A program made the translations under genes and the position numbers. 6,856 nt of DNA from a virus (lineage: Duplodnaviria > Heunggongvirae > Uroviricota > Caudoviricetes). The DNA is taken from IMG/VR virus record IMGVR_UViG_2778261568_000010, positions 1-6,856 of that record; one strand, given 5' to 3'. Shown here piece by piece: positions 1 to 6,856 of the stretch. Numbering within the stretch: position 1 is the first letter of the stretch; each line of letters begins with the position of its first letter. Below the pieces are notes generated by a model. It did no database searches and was not told the DNA's origin. It saw nothing but the letters and a program-made list of their open reading frames with translations.

Positions 1-153
1 ATGCGCAATGAAATAGCCATCAATCACCAGATGCTTCGTGCAGCACAGAACAAAGCAGTAATAGCCAGATTTATTGGTGATTCCAAAATGTGGCTTGAAG
101 CAAATAAAGCGATGAAATCAGCTATCAACCTTCCGTGGTATCGCAGGAAATGA
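1..153 (+). CDS. kil: Kil-like small protein (host cell-division inhibitor family), 50 codons as read; may start at internal ATG 31 or extend upstream of the window
   Basis: Translation MRNEIAINHQMLRAAQNKAVIARFIGDSKMWLEANKAMKSAINLPWYRRK contains IA-FIGD-KM--EA--A-K, which matches the lambda Kil N-terminal region as I recall it (TIATFIGDEKMFREAVDAYKK). Sits immediately upstream of the erf module, as kil does in P22. Window begins at the ATG, so the 5' end is unverifiable. Confidence 0.5.
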   Translation: MRNEIAINHQMLRAAQNKAVIARFIGDSKMWLEANKAMKSAINLPWYRRK

Positions 154-308
154 GTTTTACAGATAACTGGTCAGACGAAGAATTCATTCGTCAGATGAAA
201 GAATTAATCGGTAACGAAGGAGATATTCATGTCACTTGCAACCACAGTGAAGGAGAGCAAGTTACAGAGACGCATGTACACGCAGAAAGCTCTCTGGTAT
301 CGCCATAA
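150..308 (+). CDS. Small hypothetical protein (52 aa); positional analogue of P22 Arf (accessory recombination function) between kil and erf
   Basis: ATG at 150 overlaps the upstream TGA (ATGA), suggesting translational coupling. Translation MSFTDNWSDEEFIRQMKELIGNEGDIHVTCNHSEGEQVTETHVHAESSLVSP. Assignment is by position and size only; no sequence-level recognition. Confidence 0.35.
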   Translation: MSFTDNWSDEEFIRQMKELIGNEGDIHVTCNHSEGEQVTETHVHAESSLVSP

Positions 309-409
309 TGGCGACCGCGAAGGAATGCGGGTATGCCTTAATTTGTCCCGAGTCGAAGTATTAAATCAGCGTTATTTCCTTGGGCCATGTCCATTCTGAG
401 AACAAACAT

Positions 410-1015
410 ATGAGCAAAGAATTTTATGCAAGACTGGCAGCTATTCAGGAGAATCTGAACGCGCCAAAGAATCAGTACAACTCATTCGGTAAATATAAAT
501 ACAGAAGCTGCGAAGACATTCTTGAAGGCGTTAAGCCGTTACTGAATGGTCTGTTTTTATCAATCAGCGATGAAGTTGTGTTGATTGGTGATCGGTATTA
601 CGTGAAAGCCACGGCAACTATCACCGATGGCGAAAACAGTCATACGGCAACCGCACTAGCACGAGAGGAAGAAAGCAAGAAAGGAATGGATTCTGCACAA
701 GTTACGGGAGCTACAAGCTCTTATGCACGCAAGTATTGCCTCAATGGTTTATTCGGCATTGATGATGCGAAAGATGCAGATACCGACGAGCATAAACATC
801 AGCAGAACGCAGCAGCAAAGCAATCAAAACCATCACCTACACCTGGACAGGTTCTAAAAGCATTCACTGACGCAGCAATGCAGAAAAACACCGTGGAAGA
901 GCTTAAACAGGCGTTCGCCAAAGCGTGGAAGATGCTCGAAGGCACACCGGAGCAGCACAAAGCGCAGGACGTTTACAACATCAGACGAGACGAATTAGAA
1001 GGAGCGGCTGCTTAA
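410..1015 (+). CDS. erf: Erf-family single-strand annealing recombinase (essential recombination function)
   Basis: ORF-track frame 380..1015; I place the start at ATG 410 (MSKEFYARL...), since the track start at 380 is a TTG. The N-terminal half (NAPKNQYNSFGKYKYRSCEDILEGVKPLL...DRYYVKATATITDGENSH...QVTGATSSYARKYCLNGLFGIDDAKDAD) matches the conserved Erf domain as recalled from P22 Erf. Confidence 0.8.
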   Translation: MSKEFYARLAAIQENLNAPKNQYNSFGKYKYRSCEDILEGVKPLLNGLFLSISDEVVLIGDRYYVKATATITDGENSHTATALAREEESKKGMDSAQVTGATSSYARKYCLNGLFGIDDAKDADTDEHKHQQNAAAKQSKPSPTPGQVLKAFTDAAMQKNTVEELKQAFAKAWKMLEGTPEQHKAQDVYNIRRDELEGAAA

Positions 1016-1398
1016 TGGCACATTCGATTACTGTAAGACTAAACAAGCCCGCAAGAGAGTTTCAGGCCGGGGAAAATATCGGATTCAACATCCGTGCTGG
1101 CGTTCAGTATTACGATCGCCAGACAAAAAAGAAAGAATGGACAAACTACAGCGCCGTTGTATTTGCCAAGCCGGGAGCGCAAGCGGATTACTATCGTAGC
1201 GTTCTGGTTGAAGGAGGCATTGTAGAAATTACCGGAGAAAACATCAGAGTTGATGTTTATCAGGGGCAAAATGGTCAATCAATCACTCTTGAATTACTGA
1301 ATGCAAAGATTGGATTTGCAACTTCAGGAAACAGCCAACAGCAACAAAGTAGCAATCATCAAAATCATCCTGAATACGACGATTCAATTCCCTTCTAG
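1015..1398 (+). CDS. Phage SSB-like OB-fold single-stranded DNA-binding protein (127 aa) with host-SSB-like C-terminal tip
   Basis: ATG at 1015 overlaps the erf stop (TAATG). The pattern EW-NYSAVVFAKPGAQADYYRSVLVEGGIVEITGE-IRVDVYQGQNGQSITLEL parallels the E. coli SSB OB-fold core. A Gln/Ser-rich linker leads to a terminal EYDDSIPF, resembling the canonical SSB tip DDDIPF. Track ORF 925..1398 is the same frame with a spurious upstream extension. Confidence 0.6.
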   Translation: MAHSITVRLNKPAREFQAGENIGFNIRAGVQYYDRQTKKKEWTNYSAVVFAKPGAQADYYRSVLVEGGIVEITGENIRVDVYQGQNGQSITLELLNAKIGFATSGNSQQQQSSNHQNHPEYDDSIPF

Positions 1399-1421
1399 AT
1401 TAGCAAAATAAGGATTCCATT

Positions 1422-1718
1422 ATGCCAGCGCCTTTGTATGGTGCGGATGACCCGCGCCGCTGTTCCGGCAATTCCGTATCGGAGGTGCTGGATAAATTCA
1501 GAAAAAACTACGACCTGATAATGTCGCTACCGCAGGAAACGAAAGAGGAAAAGGAATTTCGTCATTGTATATGGCTTGCAGAGAAAGAAGAACGCGAGCG
1601 AATTTACCAGACATCAATCCGACCATTCCGCAAAGCCACATATACCCACTTCCCTGAATATATCGACCCGCGCCTGCGTAATTACCGCTCACGCTATGGC
1701 GCTATCAGTAATGACTGA
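1422..1718 (+). CDS. Hypothetical protein (98 aa), first gene after the erf/ssb module
   Basis: ATG at 1422 preceded by AAGGA at 1410-1414 (spacing 7). Charged composition (ETKEEKEFRHCIWLAEKEERERIYQ). No family recognised. Confidence 0.5.
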   Translation: MPAPLYGADDPRRCSGNSVSEVLDKFRKNYDLIMSLPQETKEEKEFRHCIWLAEKEERERIYQTSIRPFRKATYTHFPEYIDPRLRNYRSRYGAISND

Positions 1719-1728
1719 GGAATTTACC

Positions 1729-2019
1729 ATGAAAACAATGAAGCTAAACATCGTCCTCGGAAAATACGTTATTACCGGAACCAAACACGACCTGATTCTT
1801 AGTGAAAGAGGAATTATCAAAGAAGGCGAGAATGCAGGGAAAGAAACACTAAGCCGTATCGGTTATTACAGCAAGTTTGAGCATCTGGTTAAAGAATTAT
1901 GCAACCGTGAAATCCTGTTATCTCAGGCGCAGACGCTACAGGATATTCAGCAACATATCGAGAATTTAGGTGTGTCACTTAGCATGGCTATTGACCAGTT
2001 CGTGGAGAGTAAATCATGA
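1729..2019 (+). CDS. Hypothetical protein (96 aa)
   Basis: ATG at 1729 with GAGG at 1717-1720 (spacing 8); begins [18 protein letters not shown]. The track ORF 1576..2019 is the same frame with an N-terminal extension that would overlap the preceding gene. Confidence 0.5.
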
Positions 2020-2183
2020 GAGGACTTGCATACAATCCCGGCATTCTTCCAGCAGAAATGATTATTCGCCAACGCGTAAAGCCAATGCCATCGAGAGAGG
2101 AATTGCTTAAGAGAAATTCTTTTCCTTCAGTGAATCAAAACAAATATCTGAATGCGATGTGGCGCAAAGGAGGCAAGCAGTGA
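2016..2183 (+). CDS. Hypothetical small protein (55 aa), not in the ORF track
   Basis: ATG 2016-2018 overlaps the upstream stop TGA 2017-2019 (ATGA). Hand-translated: [55 protein letters not shown], stop TGA 2181-2183. Fills an otherwise gene-free gap in a densely packed operon. Confidence 0.35.
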
Positions 2184-2479
2184 GTGTATATCTTATTGAT
2201 AAACGTCGACGTGGGCAACAAATACCACCTGTAGGAATTCCGAATCACACATGGTTTTGCGTACTTGATATCGATGGTATGGATGCGTTGGTTGACACTA
2301 GTCATTACTGCGATACCGCAACAGCTACTACGGCGAAAGCAAAGAAAATGGCTGCTCTGATAGAAAACTGGACTCCACCTGATGGTTGGTGCAATGGGAA
2401 TGATCGAGATTGGCATGAAAAAATGAAGGGCTATATCTGCGATTTCTTACGTAAATGCAACGGCTTCAGGGTGATGTGA
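2180..2479 (+). CDS. Hypothetical protein (99 aa from GTG 2180; 106 aa if GTG 2159)
   Basis: GTG 2180 overlaps the upstream stop (GTGA) and follows AAAGGAGG at 2166-2173 (spacing 6). Several Cys residues ([24 protein letters not shown]). No family recognised. Confidence 0.45.
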
Positions 2480-2480
2480 C

Positions 2481-3017
2481 ATGAGCAAGATTGACTATCA
2501 GGCACTGCGTGAAAAGGCAGAGAAAGCAACGTGTGGGGTGTGTTCGCTCGAATATGGAGAGAGCCGATTTGATTGTGATGATGCGCTAATTCATCGTGAC
2601 GTTGTTGGATATCTTCCCATTTGCAGAATTGAAGGAGCGCATCCTGAAAGCGGTTTCGATGAAGATTTCCAAATTGAACAGCAGGCCAATGCTGAATTCA
2701 TCGCCGCAGCCAATCCGGCTACCGTGCTGGCACTACTGGATGAACGGGAAAGAAACCAGCAATACATCAAACGCCGCGACCAGGAGAACGAGGATATTGC
2801 GCTAACGGTAGGGAAGCTGCGTGTTGAGCTGGAAGCAGCAAAAAAGCGCATAGCAGAACTGAAAGCACGGGAGGTTGTACTGCCGCGTGCGCACGATGTT
2901 CACCCATTAGGGCCGCAGTCGGCGAAAATTTTTTGTGAGTTTCACCGGAGTATCGTGAACAGATGCGCCGATGAGATTCGCAAGGTTGGCGTCAAAGTCA
3001 GCATCAAGGGGAATTAG
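2481..3017 (+). CDS. Ead/Ea22-like phage protein (178 aa)
   Basis: Central segment ANAEFIAAANPATVLALLDERE is the signature I associate with the Ead/Ea22-like family of lambdoid early-left accessory proteins. It is followed by a predicted coiled-coil region (LTVGKLRVELEAAKKRIAELKARE). The N-terminus carries Cys at CGVC and FDCDD. Confidence 0.6.
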   Translation: MSKIDYQALREKAEKATCGVCSLEYGESRFDCDDALIHRDVVGYLPICRIEGAHPESGFDEDFQIEQQANAEFIAAANPATVLALLDERERNQQYIKRRDQENEDIALTVGKLRVELEAAKKRIAELKAREVVLPRAHDVHPLGPQSAKIFCEFHRSIVNRCADEIRKVGVKVSIKGN

Positions 3018-3021
3018 GGAT

Positions 3022-3528
3022 ATGGCTGAACTAACCAAAGAATGGCTGAAGCAAACTATCGCTGAATACGAAGCCAATCGTGATGAATTACCGTTTGGAC
3101 TGGATACCAACAGTGCCATTGGGCTTCAGGCGTTCAAGTTGGCGCTGGCATCGCTGGAAGCAGAACCGGTGGCGTGGAAGGTAACATTCACGCAAATTGA
3201 TCGTGAATATAACACGTTCACTGGTATGTATTCTGACAAAGCAGAAGTCGAACGGTGGGTGCGTCTGCATAAAGCATGTAATTTTCGGGCAGATATAACA
3301 CCGCTTTATACCGCCAAGCCAGTGCTGGTAACTCCGGATGGTTGGATAAGCTGTAGTGAGCGAATGCCGGATAAGTTAATTCCGGTAATGGTCATGTATG
3401 AAGACGGTGAGATGTGGTCTGCAATGTGGAATGGCAATCGCTGGGATGATGGCACCGAATATCCGGATCCGCACTCAGTTACGCACTGGCGTGAAATGCC
3501 AGCAGCACCGCAGCAGGAGGTGAAGTGA
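3022..3528 (+). CDS. Phage protein with C-terminal DUF551-type domain (168 aa from ATG 3022; 185 aa if ATG 2971)
   Basis: C-terminal DGWISCSERMPDKLIPVMVMYEDGEMWSAMWNGNRWDDGTEYPDPHSVTHWREMPAAP fits the DUF551 pattern (WIS..E..P...V.V.....W..G..W.....VTHW..MP) common in enterobacterial prophage early regions. The 2971 start would overlap the previous gene by 47 nt; 3022 follows AGGGGA at 3006-3011. Confidence 0.6.
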   Translation: MAELTKEWLKQTIAEYEANRDELPFGLDTNSAIGLQAFKLALASLEAEPVAWKVTFTQIDREYNTFTGMYSDKAEVERWVRLHKACNFRADITPLYTAKPVLVTPDGWISCSERMPDKLIPVMVMYEDGEMWSAMWNGNRWDDGTEYPDPHSVTHWREMPAAPQQEVK

Positions 3529-3806
3529 TGGACTCCTTCGCGAAATATACGATTATTGACTGGATAGCATTCCTTCAGGTTTTGCTCATCTGGTTTTATA
3601 TGGCTTACAGGAGTGGGCAGTGGATTGTCAGTGTAGCCTGTAGCAAGGGATGGCGTTGGTGGAACCGAAAGAATAAAAAAGCACTAGCCTTGGATTCGTT
3701 TTACGAAGCATTCAATCTTAACATCCTTCAGCCTGGTTCTGTCGTTGTAGTCACCACTCAAAGCGGCATGACCATTCAGATTCATAAACCAAAAGAGGAA
3801 AAATGA
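3528..3806 (+). CDS. Small predicted membrane protein (92 aa; 93 aa if GTG 3525)
   Basis: AGGAGG at 3514-3519 precedes the start. The N-terminal hydrophobic stretch YTIIDWIAFLQVLLIWFYMAY is long enough for one transmembrane helix and is followed by a basic patch (WRWWNRKNKK). The start overlaps the upstream stop (TGATG). Confidence 0.45.
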   Translation: MDSFAKYTIIDWIAFLQVLLIWFYMAYRSGQWIVSVACSKGWRWWNRKNKKALALDSFYEAFNLNILQPGSVVVVTTQSGMTIQIHKPKEEK

Positions 3807-3892
3807 TGTGGCCTATATGTGTTAATTGCGGACGGATGTGCCTATCTGGATGGTGCCGAAAGTGCGACAAATGCACGAAGCAAAGACAATAA
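3803..3892 (+). CDS. Candidate Cys-rich micro-protein (29 aa), not in the ORF track
   Basis: ATGATG start overlaps the upstream stop, with AGAGGA at 3793-3798. Hand-translated: MMWPICVNCGRMCLSGWCRKCDKCTKQRQ, six Cys in 29 residues (C-x2-C-x3-C-x4-C-x2-C-x2-C). Confidence 0.25.
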   Translation: MMWPICVNCGRMCLSGWCRKCDKCTKQRQ

Positions 3893-3926
3893 CAATCCTC
3901 GCACTCGCGGGGATTTCTTTTATCTG

Positions 3927-3950
3927 AACTCGCTACGGCGAGTTTTGTTT
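3927..3950 (+). terminator. Candidate intrinsic terminator hairpin (stem AACTCGC / GCGAGTT, loop TACG, then TTGTTTT)
   Basis: Read directly from sequence at 3927-3950; it lies in the only sizeable intergenic gap of the operon (3893..3964). Confidence 0.4.
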
Positions 3951-3964
3951 TATGGAGATGATAA

Positions 3965-4132
3965 ATGCACTTCCGAGTCACAGGTGAATGGAATGGAGAA
4001 CCATTCAACAGAGTTATCGAAGCCGAGGACATCAACGACTGCTATAACCACTGGATGATATGGGCGCAGATAGCACATGCAGAAGTAACCAATATTCGAA
4101 TTGAAGAACTGAAAGAACACAAAACCGCCTGA
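3965..4132 (+). CDS. Hypothetical 55-aa protein immediately upstream of xis
   Basis: ATG 3965 with GGAG at 3954-3957 (spacing 7). Hand-translated: MHFRVTGEWNGEPFNRVIEAEDINDCYNHWMIWAQIAHAEVTNIRIEELKEHKTA. Its size and distance from xis match the unnamed 55-codon ORF that I recall upstream of xis in the lambda reference annotation (coordinates from memory). The stop TGA 4130-4132 lies in the loop of the next hairpin. Confidence 0.45.
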   Translation: MHFRVTGEWNGEPFNRVIEAEDINDCYNHWMIWAQIAHAEVTNIRIEELKEHKTA

Positions 4133-4145
4133 TGGCGGTTTTTTC
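4121..4145 (+). terminator. Intrinsic terminator-like hairpin (stem AAAACCGCC / GGCGGTTTT, loop TGAT, then T-run)
   Basis: Near-perfect 9-bp stem with a GC core followed by TTTTTT, read directly at 4121-4145. Confidence 0.55.
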
Positions 4146-4159
4146 TTGCGTGTAATTGC
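4146..4159 (+). promoter_or_regulatory. cII-binding TTGC-N6-TTGC element of the int promoter pI
   Basis: TTGC at 4146-4149, a 6-nt spacer, then TTGC at 4156-4159, 13 nt before the xis ATG. In lambda, cII activates pI at exactly such a repeat in the -35 region, and the transcript starts inside xis so that Int is made without Xis. Confidence 0.6.
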
Positions 4160-4171
4160 GGAGACTTTGCG

Positions 4172-4390
4172 ATGTACTTGACACTTCAGGAGTGGAACGC
4201 ACGCCAGCGACGCCCAAGAAGCCTTGAAACAGTTCGTCGATGGGTACGCGAGTGCAGGATATTCCCTCCTCCGGTTAAGGATGGAAGAGAGTATCTGTTC
4301 CACGAATCAGCGGTAAAAATTGACTTAAATCGACCAGTAACAGGTAGCCTTTTGAAGAGGATCAGAAATGGGAAGAAGGCGAAGTCATGA
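4172..4390 (+). CDS. xis: Excisionase Xis (lambda type)
   Basis: 72-aa translation MYLTLQEWNARQRRPRSLETVRRWVRECRIFPPPVKDGREYLFHESAVKIDLNRPVTGSLLKRIRNGKKAKS matches lambda Xis as I recall it over its full length; the 3' end overlaps int by 23 nt as in lambda. Confidence 0.93.
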   Translation: MYLTLQEWNARQRRPRSLETVRRWVRECRIFPPPVKDGREYLFHESAVKIDLNRPVTGSLLKRIRNGKKAKS

Positions 4391-5438
4391 GCGCCGGGAT
4401 TTACCCCCTAACCTTTATATAAGAAACAATGGATATTACTGCTACAGGGACCCAAGGACGGGTAAAGAGTTTGGATTAGGCCGAGACAGGCGAATCGCAA
4501 TCACTGAAGCTATACAGGCCAACATTGAGTTATTTTCAGGACACAAACACAAGCCTCTGACAGCGAGAATCAACAGTGATAATTCCGTTACGTTACATTC
4601 ATGGCTTGATCGCTACGAAAAAATCCTGGCCAGCAGAGGAATCAAGCAGAAGACACTCATAAATTACATGAGCAAAATTAAAGCAATAAGGAGGGGGCTG
4701 CCTGATGCTTCACTTGAAGACATCACCACAAAAGAAATTGCGGCAATGCTCAATGGATACATAGACGAGGGCAAGGCGGCATCAGCCAAGTTAATCAGAT
4801 CAACACTGAGCGATGCATTCCGAGAGGCTATAGCTGAAGGCCATATAACAACAAACCCGGTCGCAGCCACTCGCGCAGCAAAATCAGAGGTAAGGAGATC
4901 AAGACTTACGGCTGACGAATACCTGAAAATTTATCAAGCAGCAGAATCATCACCATGTTGGCTTAGACTTGCAATGGAACTGGCTGTTGTTACCGGGCAG
5001 CGAGTTGGTGATTTATGCGAAATGAAGTGGTCTGATATCGTAGATGGATATCTTTATGTCGAGCAAAGCAAAACAGGCGTAAAAATTGCCATCCCAACAA
5101 CATTGCATGTTGATGCTCTCGGGATATCAATGAAGGAAACACTTGATAAATGCAAAGAGATTCTTGGCGGAGAAACCATAATTGCATCTACTCGTCGTGA
5201 ACCGCTTTCATCCGGCACAGTATCAAGGTATTTTATGCGCGCACGAAAAGCATCAGGTCTTTCCTTCGAAGGGGATCCGCCTACCTTTCACGAGTTGCGC
5301 AGTTTGTCTGCAAGACTCTATGAGAAGCAGATAAGCGATAAGTTTGCTCAACATCTTCTCGGGCATAAGTCGGACACCATGGCATCACAGTATCGTGATG
5401 ACAGAGGCAGGGAGTGGGACAAAATTGAAATCAAATAA
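4368..5438 (+). CDS. int: Tyrosine site-specific integrase Int (lambda type, 356 aa)
   Basis: N-terminal arm-binding domain MGRRRSHERRDLPPNLYIRNNGYYCYRDPRTGKEF and a C-terminal catalytic domain with the R...K...HxxR...H...Y signature (TGQRVGDL, SKTGVKIAIP, HELRSLSARLY, LLGHKSDTMASQY) match lambda Int essentially residue for residue from memory. A few substitutions relative to the reference are possible but I cannot verify them. Confidence 0.97.
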   Translation: MGRRRSHERRDLPPNLYIRNNGYYCYRDPRTGKEFGLGRDRRIAITEAIQANIELFSGHKHKPLTARINSDNSVTLHSWLDRYEKILASRGIKQKTLINYMSKIKAIRRGLPDASLEDITTKEIAAMLNGYIDEGKAASAKLIRSTLSDAFREAIAEGHITTNPVAATRAAKSEVRRSRLTADEYLKIYQAAESSPCWLRLAMELAVVTGQRVGDLCEMKWSDIVDGYLYVEQSKTGVKIAIPTTLHVDALGISMKETLDKCKEILGGETIIASTRREPLSSGTVSRYFMRARKASGLSFEGDPPTFHELRSLSARLYEKQISDKFAQHLLGHKSDTMASQYRDDRGREWDKIEIK

Positions 5439-5511
5439 TGATTTTATTTTGACTGATAGTGACCTGTTCGTTGCAACAAATTGATAAGCAATGCTTTTTT
5501 ATAATGCCAAC
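5439..5511 (+). other. attL P' arm (phage side): arm-type Int sites and IHF H' site
   Basis: The reverse complement of 5439..5511 reads GTTGGCATTATAAAAAAGCATTGCTTATCAATTTGTTGCAACGAACAGGTCACTATCAGTCAAAATAAAATCA, i.e. the lambda attP P' arm as recalled. AGGTCACTAT-type arm sites lie at about 5441-5468 and an IHF-like TATCAATTTGTTG at about 5474-5486 (reverse strand). Confidence 0.85.
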
Positions 5512-5526
5512 TTAGTATAAAAAAGC
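5512..5526. repeat. att core (15-bp common core O) at the prophage/host junction
   Basis: TTAGTATAAAAAAGC is the exact reverse complement of the lambda/E. coli core GCTTTTTTATACTAA. The flanking host-side sequence (reverse complement CCGTTGAAGCCTGC) matches the E. coli attB B arm as recalled. Confidence 0.9.
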
Positions 5527-5572
5527 AGGCTTCAACGGATTCATTTTTCTATTTCATAGCCCGGAGCAACCT

Positions 5573-6856
5573 GTGAACACATTTTCAGTTTCCCGTCTGG
5601 CGCTGGCATTGGCTTTTGGCGTGACGCTGACCGCCTGTAGCTCAACACCGCCCGATCAACGTCCTTCTGATCAAACCGCGCCTGGTACCTCTTCTCGCCC
5701 GATTCTGTCGGCAAAAGAAGCGCAGAATTTCGATGCTCAACACTATTTTGCATCCCTGACACCAGGTGCGGCAGCGTGGAATCCTTCCCCGATTACCCTG
5801 CCTGCGCAACCTGACTTTGTTGTCGGCCCGGCGGGTACTCAAGGTGTAACGCATACCACGATTCAGGCGGCGGTAGATGCGGCAATTATCAAGCGCACCA
5901 ACAAGCGCCAGTATATTGCCGTGATGCCTGGTGAGTATCAGGGAACGGTGTATGTCCCTGCCGCTCCGGGTGGAATTACTCTGTACGGTACAGGTGAAAA
6001 ACCGATTGATGTGAAGATTGGGCTTTCCCTTGATGGGGGCATGAGCCCTGCCGACTGGCGTCACGACGTCAACCCGCGCGGCAAATATATGCCAGGTAAA
6101 CCAGCGTGGTATATGTACGATAGCTGCCAGAGCAAACGCAGCGACAGTATCGGTGTTCTCTGCTCTGCGGTCTTCTGGTCACAAAACAATGGCCTGCAAC
6201 TGCAAAATCTGACCATCGAAAACACGCTGGGCGATAGCGTAGATGCGGGTAACCATCCGGCGGTGGCACTGCGTACTGATGGTGACAAAGTGCAGATCAA
6301 TAACGTCAACATTCTCGGTCGTCAGAATACCTTCTTTGTCACCAACAGTGGTGTGCAAAACCGTCTGGAAACCAACCGTCAGCCGCGTACTCTGGTGACC
6401 AACAGTTACATTGAAGGGGATGTGGATATCGTTTCTGGTCGCGGCGCAGTGGTGTTCGATAACACCGAATTCCGCGTGGTGAACTCACGTACTCAGCAAG
6501 AAGCGTATGTGTTTGCACCGGCTACGCTGTCTAACATCTATTACGGTTTCCTCGCCGTAAACAGCCGTTTCAATGCTTCCGGTGATGGCGTGGCGCAACT
6601 GGGTCGCTCGCTGGATGTTGATGCCAATACCAACGGTCAGGTGGTGATCCGTGATAGCGCCATCAACGAAGGTTTTAACACAGCCAAACCCTGGGCTGAT
6701 GCGGTGATCTCTAATCGTCCGTTTGCGGGTAACACCGGCAGCGTTGATGATAACGACGAAATACAACGCAATCTGAATGACACTAACTACAACCGCATGT
6801 GGGAATACAATAACCGCGGCGTGGGTAGCAAAGTGGTTGCAGAGGCGAAGAAGTAA
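5573..6856 (+). CDS. ybhC: Host outer-membrane lipoprotein YbhC (pectinesterase-like, carbohydrate esterase family 8 fold; reported thioesterase activity), 427 aa
   Basis: GTG start with GGAG at 5563-5566. The N-terminus MNTFSVSRLALALAFGVTLTAC is a lipoprotein signal peptide with lipobox LTAC. The full-length translation matches E. coli YbhC as I recall it. Codon usage and GC content look host-like, unlike the AT-richer phage DNA to the left. Confidence 0.93.
   Translation: MNTFSVSRLALALAFGVTLTACSSTPPDQRPSDQTAPGTSSRPILSAKEAQNFDAQHYFASLTPGAAAWNPSPITLPAQPDFVVGPAGTQGVTHTTIQAAVDAAIIKRTNKRQYIAVMPGEYQGTVYVPAAPGGITLYGTGEKPIDVKIGLSLDGGMSPADWRHDVNPRGKYMPGKPAWYMYDSCQSKRSDSIGVLCSAVFWSQNNGLQLQNLTIENTLGDSVDAGNHPAVALRTDGDKVQINNVNILGRQNTFFVTNSGVQNRLETNRQPRTLVTNSYIEGDVDIVSGRGAVVFDNTEFRVVNSRTQQEAYVFAPATLSNIYYGFLAVNSRFNASGDGVAQLGRSLDVDANTNGQVVIRDSAINEGFNTAKPWADAVISNRPFAGNTGSVDDNDEIQRNLNDTNYNRMWEYNNRGVGSKVVAEAKK

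Follow-up and report, generated by a model that had tools for sequence, protein, structure and literature searches.

Lambda's integration module and an HK97-type recombination module at the attL end of a mosaic lambdoid prophage beside ybhC

The stretch of DNA analysed here (the window; 6,856 bp, positions 1 to 6,856 of IMG/VR virus record IMGVR_UViG_2778261568_000010) runs from the ATG of kil at position 1 to the stop codon of ybhC at position 6856, and its phage-like genes all lie on the plus strand in the order kil, two small open reading frames (ORFs), erf, an SSB-like gene, abc2, six accessory genes, orf55, a terminator hairpin, pI, xis, int and attL. The window is very probably the int-proximal (attL) end of a mosaic lambdoid prophage inserted at the lambda site beside ybhC, with the distal genes of the early-left (pL) operon arranged as in HK97, HK106 and Sf6. 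The features at its right-hand end are as follows.

Positions 5527-6856, plus strand: host DNA outside the prophage, consisting of the B arm of attB and ybhC (5573-6856), as annotated in all top E. coli hits and delimited by unoccupied genomes, which match only from 5508.
Positions 5512-5526, minus strand: the 15-bp att core, crossover region of attL (GCTTTTTTATACTAA on the minus strand, TTAGTATAAAAAAGC on the plus strand; lambda misc_recomb 27724-27738).
Positions 5439-5511, minus strand: P' arm of attP with arm-type Int sites and the IHF H' site, assigned by identity to lambda (5199-5526 mismatch-free).
Positions 4368-5438, plus strand: int, lambda integrase (Phage_integrase 1.7e-40, Arm-DNA-bind_1 7.1e-33; 98.9% amino acid identity to lambda Int, 99.4% to HK97 Int).
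Positions 4172-4390, plus strand: xis, excisionase (Pfam Exc 9.6e-41; 97.2% amino acid identity to lambda Xis, with the changes V50I and G59S, and 98.6% to HK97 Xis).
Positions 4147-4160, plus strand: CII-binding box of pI, TTGC-N6-TTGC (TTGCGTGTAATTGC), from reading of the sequence, identical to lambda.
Positions 4121-4142, either strand: G+C-rich, intrinsic-terminator-like hairpin followed by a T tract; it overlaps the stop codon of orf55 (fold -16.5 kcal/mol, z -5.1).
Positions 3965-4132, plus strand: orf55, equivalent to lambdap35 (91% amino acid identity to lambda NP_597778; PHROG 676, 4.6e-38).
Positions 3889-3962, plus strand: intergenic linker with two terminator-like hairpins (3894-3915 and 3926-3945) from a terminator scan (folds -13.1 and -11.9 kcal/mol, z -5.5 and -4.2).

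The phage DNA passes into host DNA at 5526/5527, where the core is followed by AGGCTTCAACGG in the attB arm and then by ybhC, and prophage-free genomes match the window only from 5508 onward; the junction is therefore attL (B-O-P'), and the element occupies the classical lambda attB between ybhC and ybhB. The host arm and ybhC lie 3' of the core, and a related complete prophage described below sits between ybhB and ybhC. In a megablast comparison of the window with 5,426 complete E. coli genomes, every top hit had ybhC, a tyrosine integrase and a protein named 'ERF family protein' beneath the match, and the int-attL-ybhC junction (391 bp, at least 80% coverage) was present in 1,919 of these genomes (about 35%). 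The P arm (P1, P2, X1, X2, F, H1, H2), attR and sib belong to the other end of the prophage, beyond both the window and the public contig.

A single blastn alignment pairs 3889-5526 with positions 29361-27724 of lambda (NC_001416) at 97.985% identity (1638 bp, 33 mismatches, 0 gaps), and the stretches 4133-4212 and 5199-5526, the latter being the last 328 bp and including the core and the P' arm, are identical to lambda. The E-values of the similarities are 0, so chance is no issue. A sequence-only reading of this DNA had placed a lambda-like block of 55-codon ORF, terminator, pI element, xis, int and P' arm here, and all of these elements were recovered at or near the places it gave them. The integrase differs from lambda Int by four substitutions only (P115S, H164P, A245T and I248V), and the catalytic residues R212, K235, H308, R311, H333 and Y342 of a tyrosine recombinase are present together with the lambda arm-binding domain. 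Residues N99, S282, G283, R287 and E319 are unchanged, in agreement with core specificity of the lambda rather than the HK022 type; the positions other than N99 and H329 are further specificity determinants, reportedly from Dorgai/Yagil 1995. N99 and H329 are described as lambda/HK022 specificity determinants (PMC10863862). Upstream of int lie both xis and the CII-dependent pI, and a CII site and pI are annotated at the position aligned to 4147-4160 in the HK620 and Sf6 records. Comparison of the int block with lambda, HK97 and HK106 revealed no further clear joints, the mismatches being scattered except that 4489-4688 is mismatch-free relative to lambda and that lambda, HK97 and HK106 are all identical from 5199 on. 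The integration module is lambda's own, with 98% DNA identity and with identical core and P' arm.

Upstream of lambda position 29361 the likeness to lambda ends. Lambda identity is not uniform along the window but confined to 3889-5526 and a 120-bp patch in an ea22-family gene, and uniform identity to lambda was rejected on this account. The window does not have ea8.5, exo, bet and gam, and its Kil is 57% identical to that of lambda. The absence of lambda Red from the left part, as proposed in the sequence-only reading, was borne out by blastn against lambda, which detected no DNA similarity to gam, bet or exo in the window. The left-hand features are as follows.

Positions 1-153, plus strand: kil, inhibitor of host cell division; its allele within the lambda Kil family is that of HK97/Sf6 (Pfam Lambda_Kil 1.7e-20).
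Positions 150-308, plus strand: orfA, 52 amino acids, equivalent to Sf6 gene 30 (100% amino acid identity to Sf6 gp30; PHROG 2123).
Positions 229-399, plus strand: orfB, 56 amino acids, equivalent to Sf6 gene 29 and of the HK620 hkaM family (100% amino acid identity to Sf6 gp29, 33% to HkaM; both PHROG 1723).
Positions 410-1015, plus strand: erf, single-strand annealing protein (SAP; Pfam ERF 3e-44; 99.5% amino acid identity to HK97 Erf and 74% to P22 Erf, full length).
Positions 1015-1398, plus strand: SSB-like protein of the HK97 gp40 type 'SSB-1b', 127 amino acids, with OB-fold core, Q-rich linker and DDSIPF tip (94.5% amino acid identity to HK97 gp40).
Positions 1422-1718, plus strand: abc2, anti-RecBCD protein (Pfam Anti-RecBCD_p2 4.4e-63; amino acid identity 97% to Sf6, 96% to HK97 and 94% to P22).

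Positions 1-1732 are collinear with HK97 (NC_002167; 96.7% DNA identity) and HK106 (NC_019768; 96.9%), which share with the window kil, the small ORFs, erf, gp40 (SSB-1b), abc2, accessory genes, terminator, xis, int and the lambda att core, and which are 98.3-98.4% identical to it over the int block. Kil scored 72.6 bits against PF06301 (cut-off 27.6), placing it in the Lambda Kil family, and is 100% identical to the Kil proteins of HK97 and Sf6, the identity to lambda Kil extending over 30 residues. Likewise, Erf scored 151.1 bits against PF04404 (cut-off 25) and belongs to the ERF superfamily, in keeping with its earlier assignment; by analogy with P22 Erf it would anneal single-stranded DNA and form ring oligomers. 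The attribution of this region to a P22-like kil/erf module held only in part. A gene of the Kil family and homologs of P22 Erf and Abc2 are present, and as in P22, where the order is arf-erf-abc1-abc2, the module belongs to a pL operon downstream of c3/kil. By contrast, Kil is the HK97/Sf6 allele and shows no detectable similarity to P22 Kil even in a permissive blastp search (PHROG 2055 versus PHROG 2394 for P22 Kil), and orfA, at the position of P22 arf, has in common with Arf (PHROG 2445) only a W/F-SDEEFI motif (E 0.5). The same permissive search returned no significant homolog of P22 Kil, Arf or Abc1 among the proteins of the window (best E 0.5-1.3, from the short orfA motif) and the PHROGs differ, for which reason P22-like Kil and Arf were rejected. 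The position of abc1 is taken by the SSB-like gene, and int, xis and att of P22 are unrelated to those of the window. With erf, gp40 and abc2 contiguous in HK97 order as well, the recombination module is therefore of HK97 type (Erf, SSB-1b and Abc2) and not of P22 type (Arf, Erf, Abc1 and Abc2). Rec modules combining SAP, SSB and anti-RecBCD genes have been listed, HK97 being given as SAP + SSB-1b + Abc2 (PMC12315714). Thus the combination of an Erf/SSB module with lambda-specific integration, proposed in the sequence-only reading, is indeed present, but it is not unusual, since the HK97 and HK106 records annotate the same. For HK97, no direct statement on use of the lambda att site was found in the open-access literature and the GenBank feature notes were used instead, the HK97 record describing its att as 'identical to lambda att site core'.

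In the same region, orfA and orfB overlap in different frames (150-308 and 229-399), and the HK97 annotation has a single fused 83-amino-acid ORF in their place. The PHROG label 'recombinase' on both families is without evident basis.

The product of 1015-1398 had been called SSB-like before any database search, and this was supported by its match to PHROG 44, 'single strand DNA binding protein' (1.8e-28), and by the predicted structure. The AlphaFold2 model (pLDDT 84.7) is a beta-barrel with one helix, consistent with an OB fold, followed by a Q-rich segment (residues 107-121) that is disordered (pLDDT below 50). In a Foldseek search of the PDB the top 18 matches were bacterial SSBs and the next few dozen were SSBs from bacteria or mitochondria along with a few PriB chains; the probability was 1.00 throughout and the best E-value 8.6e-5, but the TM-scores were only 0.4-0.5. 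An alignment of 23 family members showed that the N-terminal domain (about 105 residues) and the terminal D-D-x-I-P-F, YDDSIPF in the window, are conserved, and that the Q/P-rich linker between them varies greatly in length; the family thus has the domain layout of bacterial SSBs. HK97 gp40 has been designated 'SSB-1b' on the basis of its predicted structure (PMC12315714, Genome Res 2025).

The SSB-type tip (...YDDSIPF) is encoded in the window (1380-1398) and found in HK106 and the wider family, whereas the HK97 reference gene 40 contains one extra A near its 3' end (about 2885-2906) and its protein ends in ...YDDSNPILI. Because of this 1-nt insertion, which is either a real mutation or a sequencing error, the 'SSB-1b' prototype is without the canonical tip, and the window is of use in flagging a tip that is intact here and frameshifted in the HK97 reference. 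It is conceivable, although we hold it to be rather doubtful, that SSB-1b is a working phage mimic of host SSB whose E. coli-like DDSIPF tip recruits host SSB-interacting proteins or Erf to recombination intermediates, replacing Abc1 and Arf of the P22-type pathway. If true, studies based on HK97 would underestimate the role of SSB-1b, the tip being destroyed in that phage.

Several observations weigh against the interpretation of the window given at the outset. The SSB-like protein matched no Pfam family at E 0.01 and scored 16.4 bits against TIGR00621, below the cut-off of 53.95; the curated SSB models (Pfam SSB, TIGR00621) thus do not recognize it, and its best PDB sequence match, itself an SSB, had an E-value of 0.042. 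With the sequence models below threshold, the SSB-like call therefore rests on PHROG, the predicted fold and the C-terminal motif, and an SSB role is suggested by fold prediction and motif. Moreover, the CII protein that would act at pI is encoded outside the window, the element is known here from its sequence alone, and only about 5.5 kb of the prophage lies within the window, the public contig ending in cIII, so that completeness, immunity type, virion type and attR are beyond view.

This truncation bears on whether the element is a defective remnant, of which just the left end from kil to int is left beside ybhC with its genes decaying. Cryptic lambdoid remnants are common in E. coli, the window begins at kil and the NCBI contig 94 bp further left, within cIII, and several neighbouring genes in a close relative, the prophage L009, are flagged as frameshifted or as having an internal stop. 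However, all 15 ORFs of the window are full length relative to their homologs in viable phages (91-100% amino acid identity) and without frameshifts, the end of the contig in cIII looks like, and probably is, an assembly break typical of repeated prophage sequence, and in the nearest complete relative a full prophage of 40 kb lies between ybhB and ybhC. We therefore consider decay to a remnant improbable and retain the interpretation as one end of a mosaic lambdoid prophage.

The mosaic nature of the window is evident from alignments to reference lambdoid phages, from which the following map was drawn.

1-400 (kil, orfA, orfB): Sf6 99%, HK97/HK106 about 97%.
401-1418 (erf, SSB-like gene): HK97/HK106 only; P22 78.7% over the 5' part of erf.
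1419-1732 (abc2): common to all; P22 91%.
1733-2014 (Sf6 gene 24-like): Sf6 only.
2015-2164 (DUF2737): HK620 97%, Sf6 96%, HK97 92%, P22 76%.
2165-2750 (DUF7739 and start of the ea22-like gene): Sf6 96%.
2482-2842 (ea22-like gene): HK620 93%.
3145-3530 (DUF551): CurroJimenez_Bas106/Dewey 97.7%.
3327-3530 (3' part of DUF551): Stx phages 99.5%.
3503-3926 (DUF4752 and 29-amino-acid ORF): HK106 97.9%.
3889-5526 (int block): lambda 98.0%.
3911-5526 (int block): HK106 98.4%.
4135-5526 (int block): HK97 98.3%.

At least eight segments with differing nearest relatives (HK97/HK106, Sf6, HK620, Stx phages and lambda) make up the region, and at least eight joints are seen, at about 400, 1419, 1732, 2015, 2164, 2481, 2750/2843, 3145, 3503 and 3889. 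The single recombination breakpoint that had been expected between about 3530 and 3965 is accordingly one of many, although the lambda joint itself, at 3888/3889, does fall in that interval. It coincides with the stop codon (3890-3892) of a 29-codon ORF and in lambda lies 13 nt past the stop codon of ea8.5. Several joints coincide with gene boundaries, with intergenic hairpins or with short sequences common to lambdoid phages; the hairpins and conserved patches concerned are 2482-2512 (equal to Sf6 bsq3), 3888-3962 and 4081-4152. The linker at 3889-3962 is common to lambda, Sf6 (97%, as the patch 3888-3962) and HK106, in which 3911-3926 is a point of insertion, and the joint with HK97, at 4135, falls within the T tract of the 4121-4142 hairpin, where the HK97 record has a putative terminator. 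This pattern is that of the known exchange of lambdoid modules at conserved linkers and gene boundaries, reportedly described by Juhala et al. 2000 and Clark et al. 2001. PMC2327257 deals with homeologous recombination by phage recombinases as a cause of such mosaic patterns.

Joints of this kind, in short sequences common to many prophages, are also where short-read assemblers can mis-join, and as E. coli genomes match the window at a median of 2 places each, and at as many as 10, reads of a lambda-like and an HK97/Sf6-like prophage might have been joined wrongly at a shared repeat. Against such an artefact, two independent assemblies, NJKX01000034.1 (GCA_002466895.1) and Logan SRR4261770, the latter reported for 16 samples, are 100% identical over all 6856 bp; the chimera was rejected on these grounds, and the window is therefore real chromosomal sequence. 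The same joints also occur in isolated phages, HK106 being continuous across 3503-3926 and 3911-5526 and HK97 joining erf-abc2 to lambda xis-int, and in complete genomes erf and int lie within a few kb of ybhC. We regard an assembly artefact as extremely improbable.

The DNA of Sf6 (NC_005344) is 99% identical to the window over kil, gene 30 and gene 29 (1-400) and 96.0% over 1419-2750, and Sf6 shares bsq3, whereas it has a different Erf (28% amino acid identity, in the C-terminal part only), a canonical SSB (gp27) and gp26 instead of SSB-1b, and an IntS-type integrase and att unrelated to those of the window. HK97 differs from the window in having gp37, in being without orf55, in the fusion of orfA and orfB and in the 1-nt insertion altering the SSB tip, and HK106 in an extra 813-bp gene between the two hairpins of the linker. 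In the ea region, the window differs from both in having Sf6-type genes 24 and 22, a different Ea22 mosaic and the DUF551 gene.

The closest complete prophage at attλ, L009 (E. coli JNE120393, 8600-47900), is the full 40-kb prophage between ybhB and ybhC mentioned above; it has P22-type capsid, portal, tail-needle, tailspike and gtr O-antigen-modification genes, together with lambda-type CII and Cro/CI regulators, and ends in kil-erf-ssb-abc2 ... xis-int, i.e., in a lambda int/xis with an HK97-type Rec module. Since L009 is of podovirus type and HK97 and HK106 are siphoviruses, lambda integration specificity occurs on both lambdoid virion types. Whether the element in the window is itself a P22-like (Lederbergvirus) prophage with acquired lambda int and att, as implied by the title of the sequence-only reading, and not an HK97-like siphovirus, appears to us evenly balanced. 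The virion genes of L009, the best matches of 1-400 and 1419-2750 to the P22-like phage Sf6, and the podovirus vB_EcoP-720R6, which matches 150-5438 at 97%, speak for it, but the erf-ssb and int blocks are matched at least as well by the siphoviruses HK97 and HK106, no virion gene lies within the window, and in lambdoid phages the assortment of early-left modules is independent of that of the virion modules (PMC12315714). Either virion type is compatible with the interpretation as an attL end of a mosaic lambdoid prophage.

By analogy with lambda and P22, we propose that after induction of this prophage N-antiterminated pL transcription would run through kil to int, and that Abc2 would bind RecC and reprogram RecBCD. 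Binding of Abc2 to RecC and alteration of RecBCD are attributed, in PMC12315714, to Murphy and Lewis 1993 and Wilkinson 2022. Subsequently, Erf would anneal the resulting single strands, helped by the phage SSB, and Int and Xis, aided by the host proteins IHF and Fis, would recombine attL with attR and so excise the element; production of Int and Xis would be stable because sib lies at the other end of the prophage, away from int. On infection, CII would activate pI, the transcript of which would start just inside xis, giving Int without Xis and insertion at attB. The mosaic itself may have arisen by recombination between co-resident lambdoid genomes at shared linker sequences. No Chi sites were found in the window on either strand, which fits a phage with an anti-RecBCD protein, but is uninformative at 6.9 kb.

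The architecture described here is already known and common, lambda int/att with Erf-SSB-Abc2 being present in HK97 and HK106, and the erf + SSB-1b block was found in 556 of the 5,426 complete E. coli genomes (about 10%). No complete E. coli genome matched the whole window at more than 84% coverage and no phage record at more than 64%, the exact sequence occurring only in draft assemblies; absence of the exact accessory combination elsewhere is expected for a hypervariable region. Beyond correct annotation the importance of the window is slight, as it represents textbook lambdoid mosaicism with both cassettes widespread in E. coli; it does show cleanly, to the base, how module joints fall in terminator hairpins and in annotated 'boundary sequences'.

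Six accessory 'ea-region' genes lie between abc2 and orf55, together with a short Cys-rich ORF.

Positions 1729-2019, plus strand: Sf6 gene 24-like ORF (DUF5405 1.8e-5; 96% amino acid identity to Sf6 gp24).
Positions 2016-2183, plus strand: DUF2737 gene of the P22 orf56/HK97 gp38/HK620 hkaI family (Pfam DUF2737 8.8e-32; 77% amino acid identity to P22 orf56).
Positions 2180-2479, plus strand: DUF7739 gene, equivalent to Sf6 gene 22 (98% amino acid identity to Sf6 gp22; DUF7739 4.9e-17).
Positions 2481-3017, plus strand: mosaic Ead/Ea22-family gene (Pfam Ead_Ea22 1.3e-30).
Positions 3022-3528, plus strand: DUF551 gene of the P22 eaA/HK620 hkaE C-terminal domain family (Pfam DUF551 8.4e-18).
Positions 3525-3806, plus strand: DUF4752 gene, equivalent to HK106 gp31 (Pfam DUF4752 2.9e-35; 3503-3926 97.9% to HK106).
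Positions 3803-3892, plus strand: 29-amino-acid Cys-rich ORF, equivalent to HK106 gp30, from reading of the sequence (the equivalent 90-bp coding sequence in HK106 is annotated as hypothetical).

The ORF layout between 2481 and 3892 had been noted as unlike that of lambda ea22 and ea8.5, and correctly so, since ea8.5 is absent from the window and the ea22-family gene shares with lambda ea22 a patch of 120 bp (2724-2843, 95%) plus a weak 48-bp match at the 5' end. Over its first 31 bp (2482-2512) this gene is 100% identical to HK97, and the same stretch corresponds to the Sf6 feature 'bsq3; boundary sequence'. The gene is itself a patchwork, Sf6-like to 2750, HK620-like over 2482-2842 and with a P22 eaD patch at 2729-2869 (88%), and its 3' end has no close match among the reference phages examined. 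The gene 24-like ORF is absent at the corresponding position in HK97, HK106, HK620 and P22. In the DUF551 region, the 97.7% match over 3145-3530 is shared by CurroJimenez_Bas106 and Dewey, and the 99.5% match over 3327-3530 is to Stx phages. The 29-amino-acid ORF (MMWPICVNCGRMCLSGWCRKCDKCTKQRQ) contains seven Cys, its start overlaps the DUF4752 stop codon (ATGA) and it ends where lambda homology begins; it had no match in PHROG or NCBIfam.

A scan of the window against Rfam with E up to 1 gave two sub-threshold matches at chance level, both over hairpins, and no known RNA family, and a sigma-70 promoter scan was uninformative (2 sites versus 10 expected). The segment 4081-4152, i.e., the 3' 50 bp of orf55 and the hairpin, recurs at 93-95% identity in P22, Sf6 and HK620, three phages with unrelated integrases and upstream genes. 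In P22, the homologous counterpart of the 4121-4142 hairpin is annotated as terminating aI, an antisense RNA of the opposite strand, and the hairpin in the window may therefore act in both directions. At the neighbouring linker, the additional 813-bp cassette of HK106 (5297-6108) lies exactly between the two hairpins and has its own hairpin besides a gene with the annotation 'queuine tRNA-ribosyltransferase'. On either side of it stands a nearly identical 16-bp sequence, GG(A/G)TTTCTTTTAT(C/A)TG, and the cassette is a moron-like insertion at the linker.

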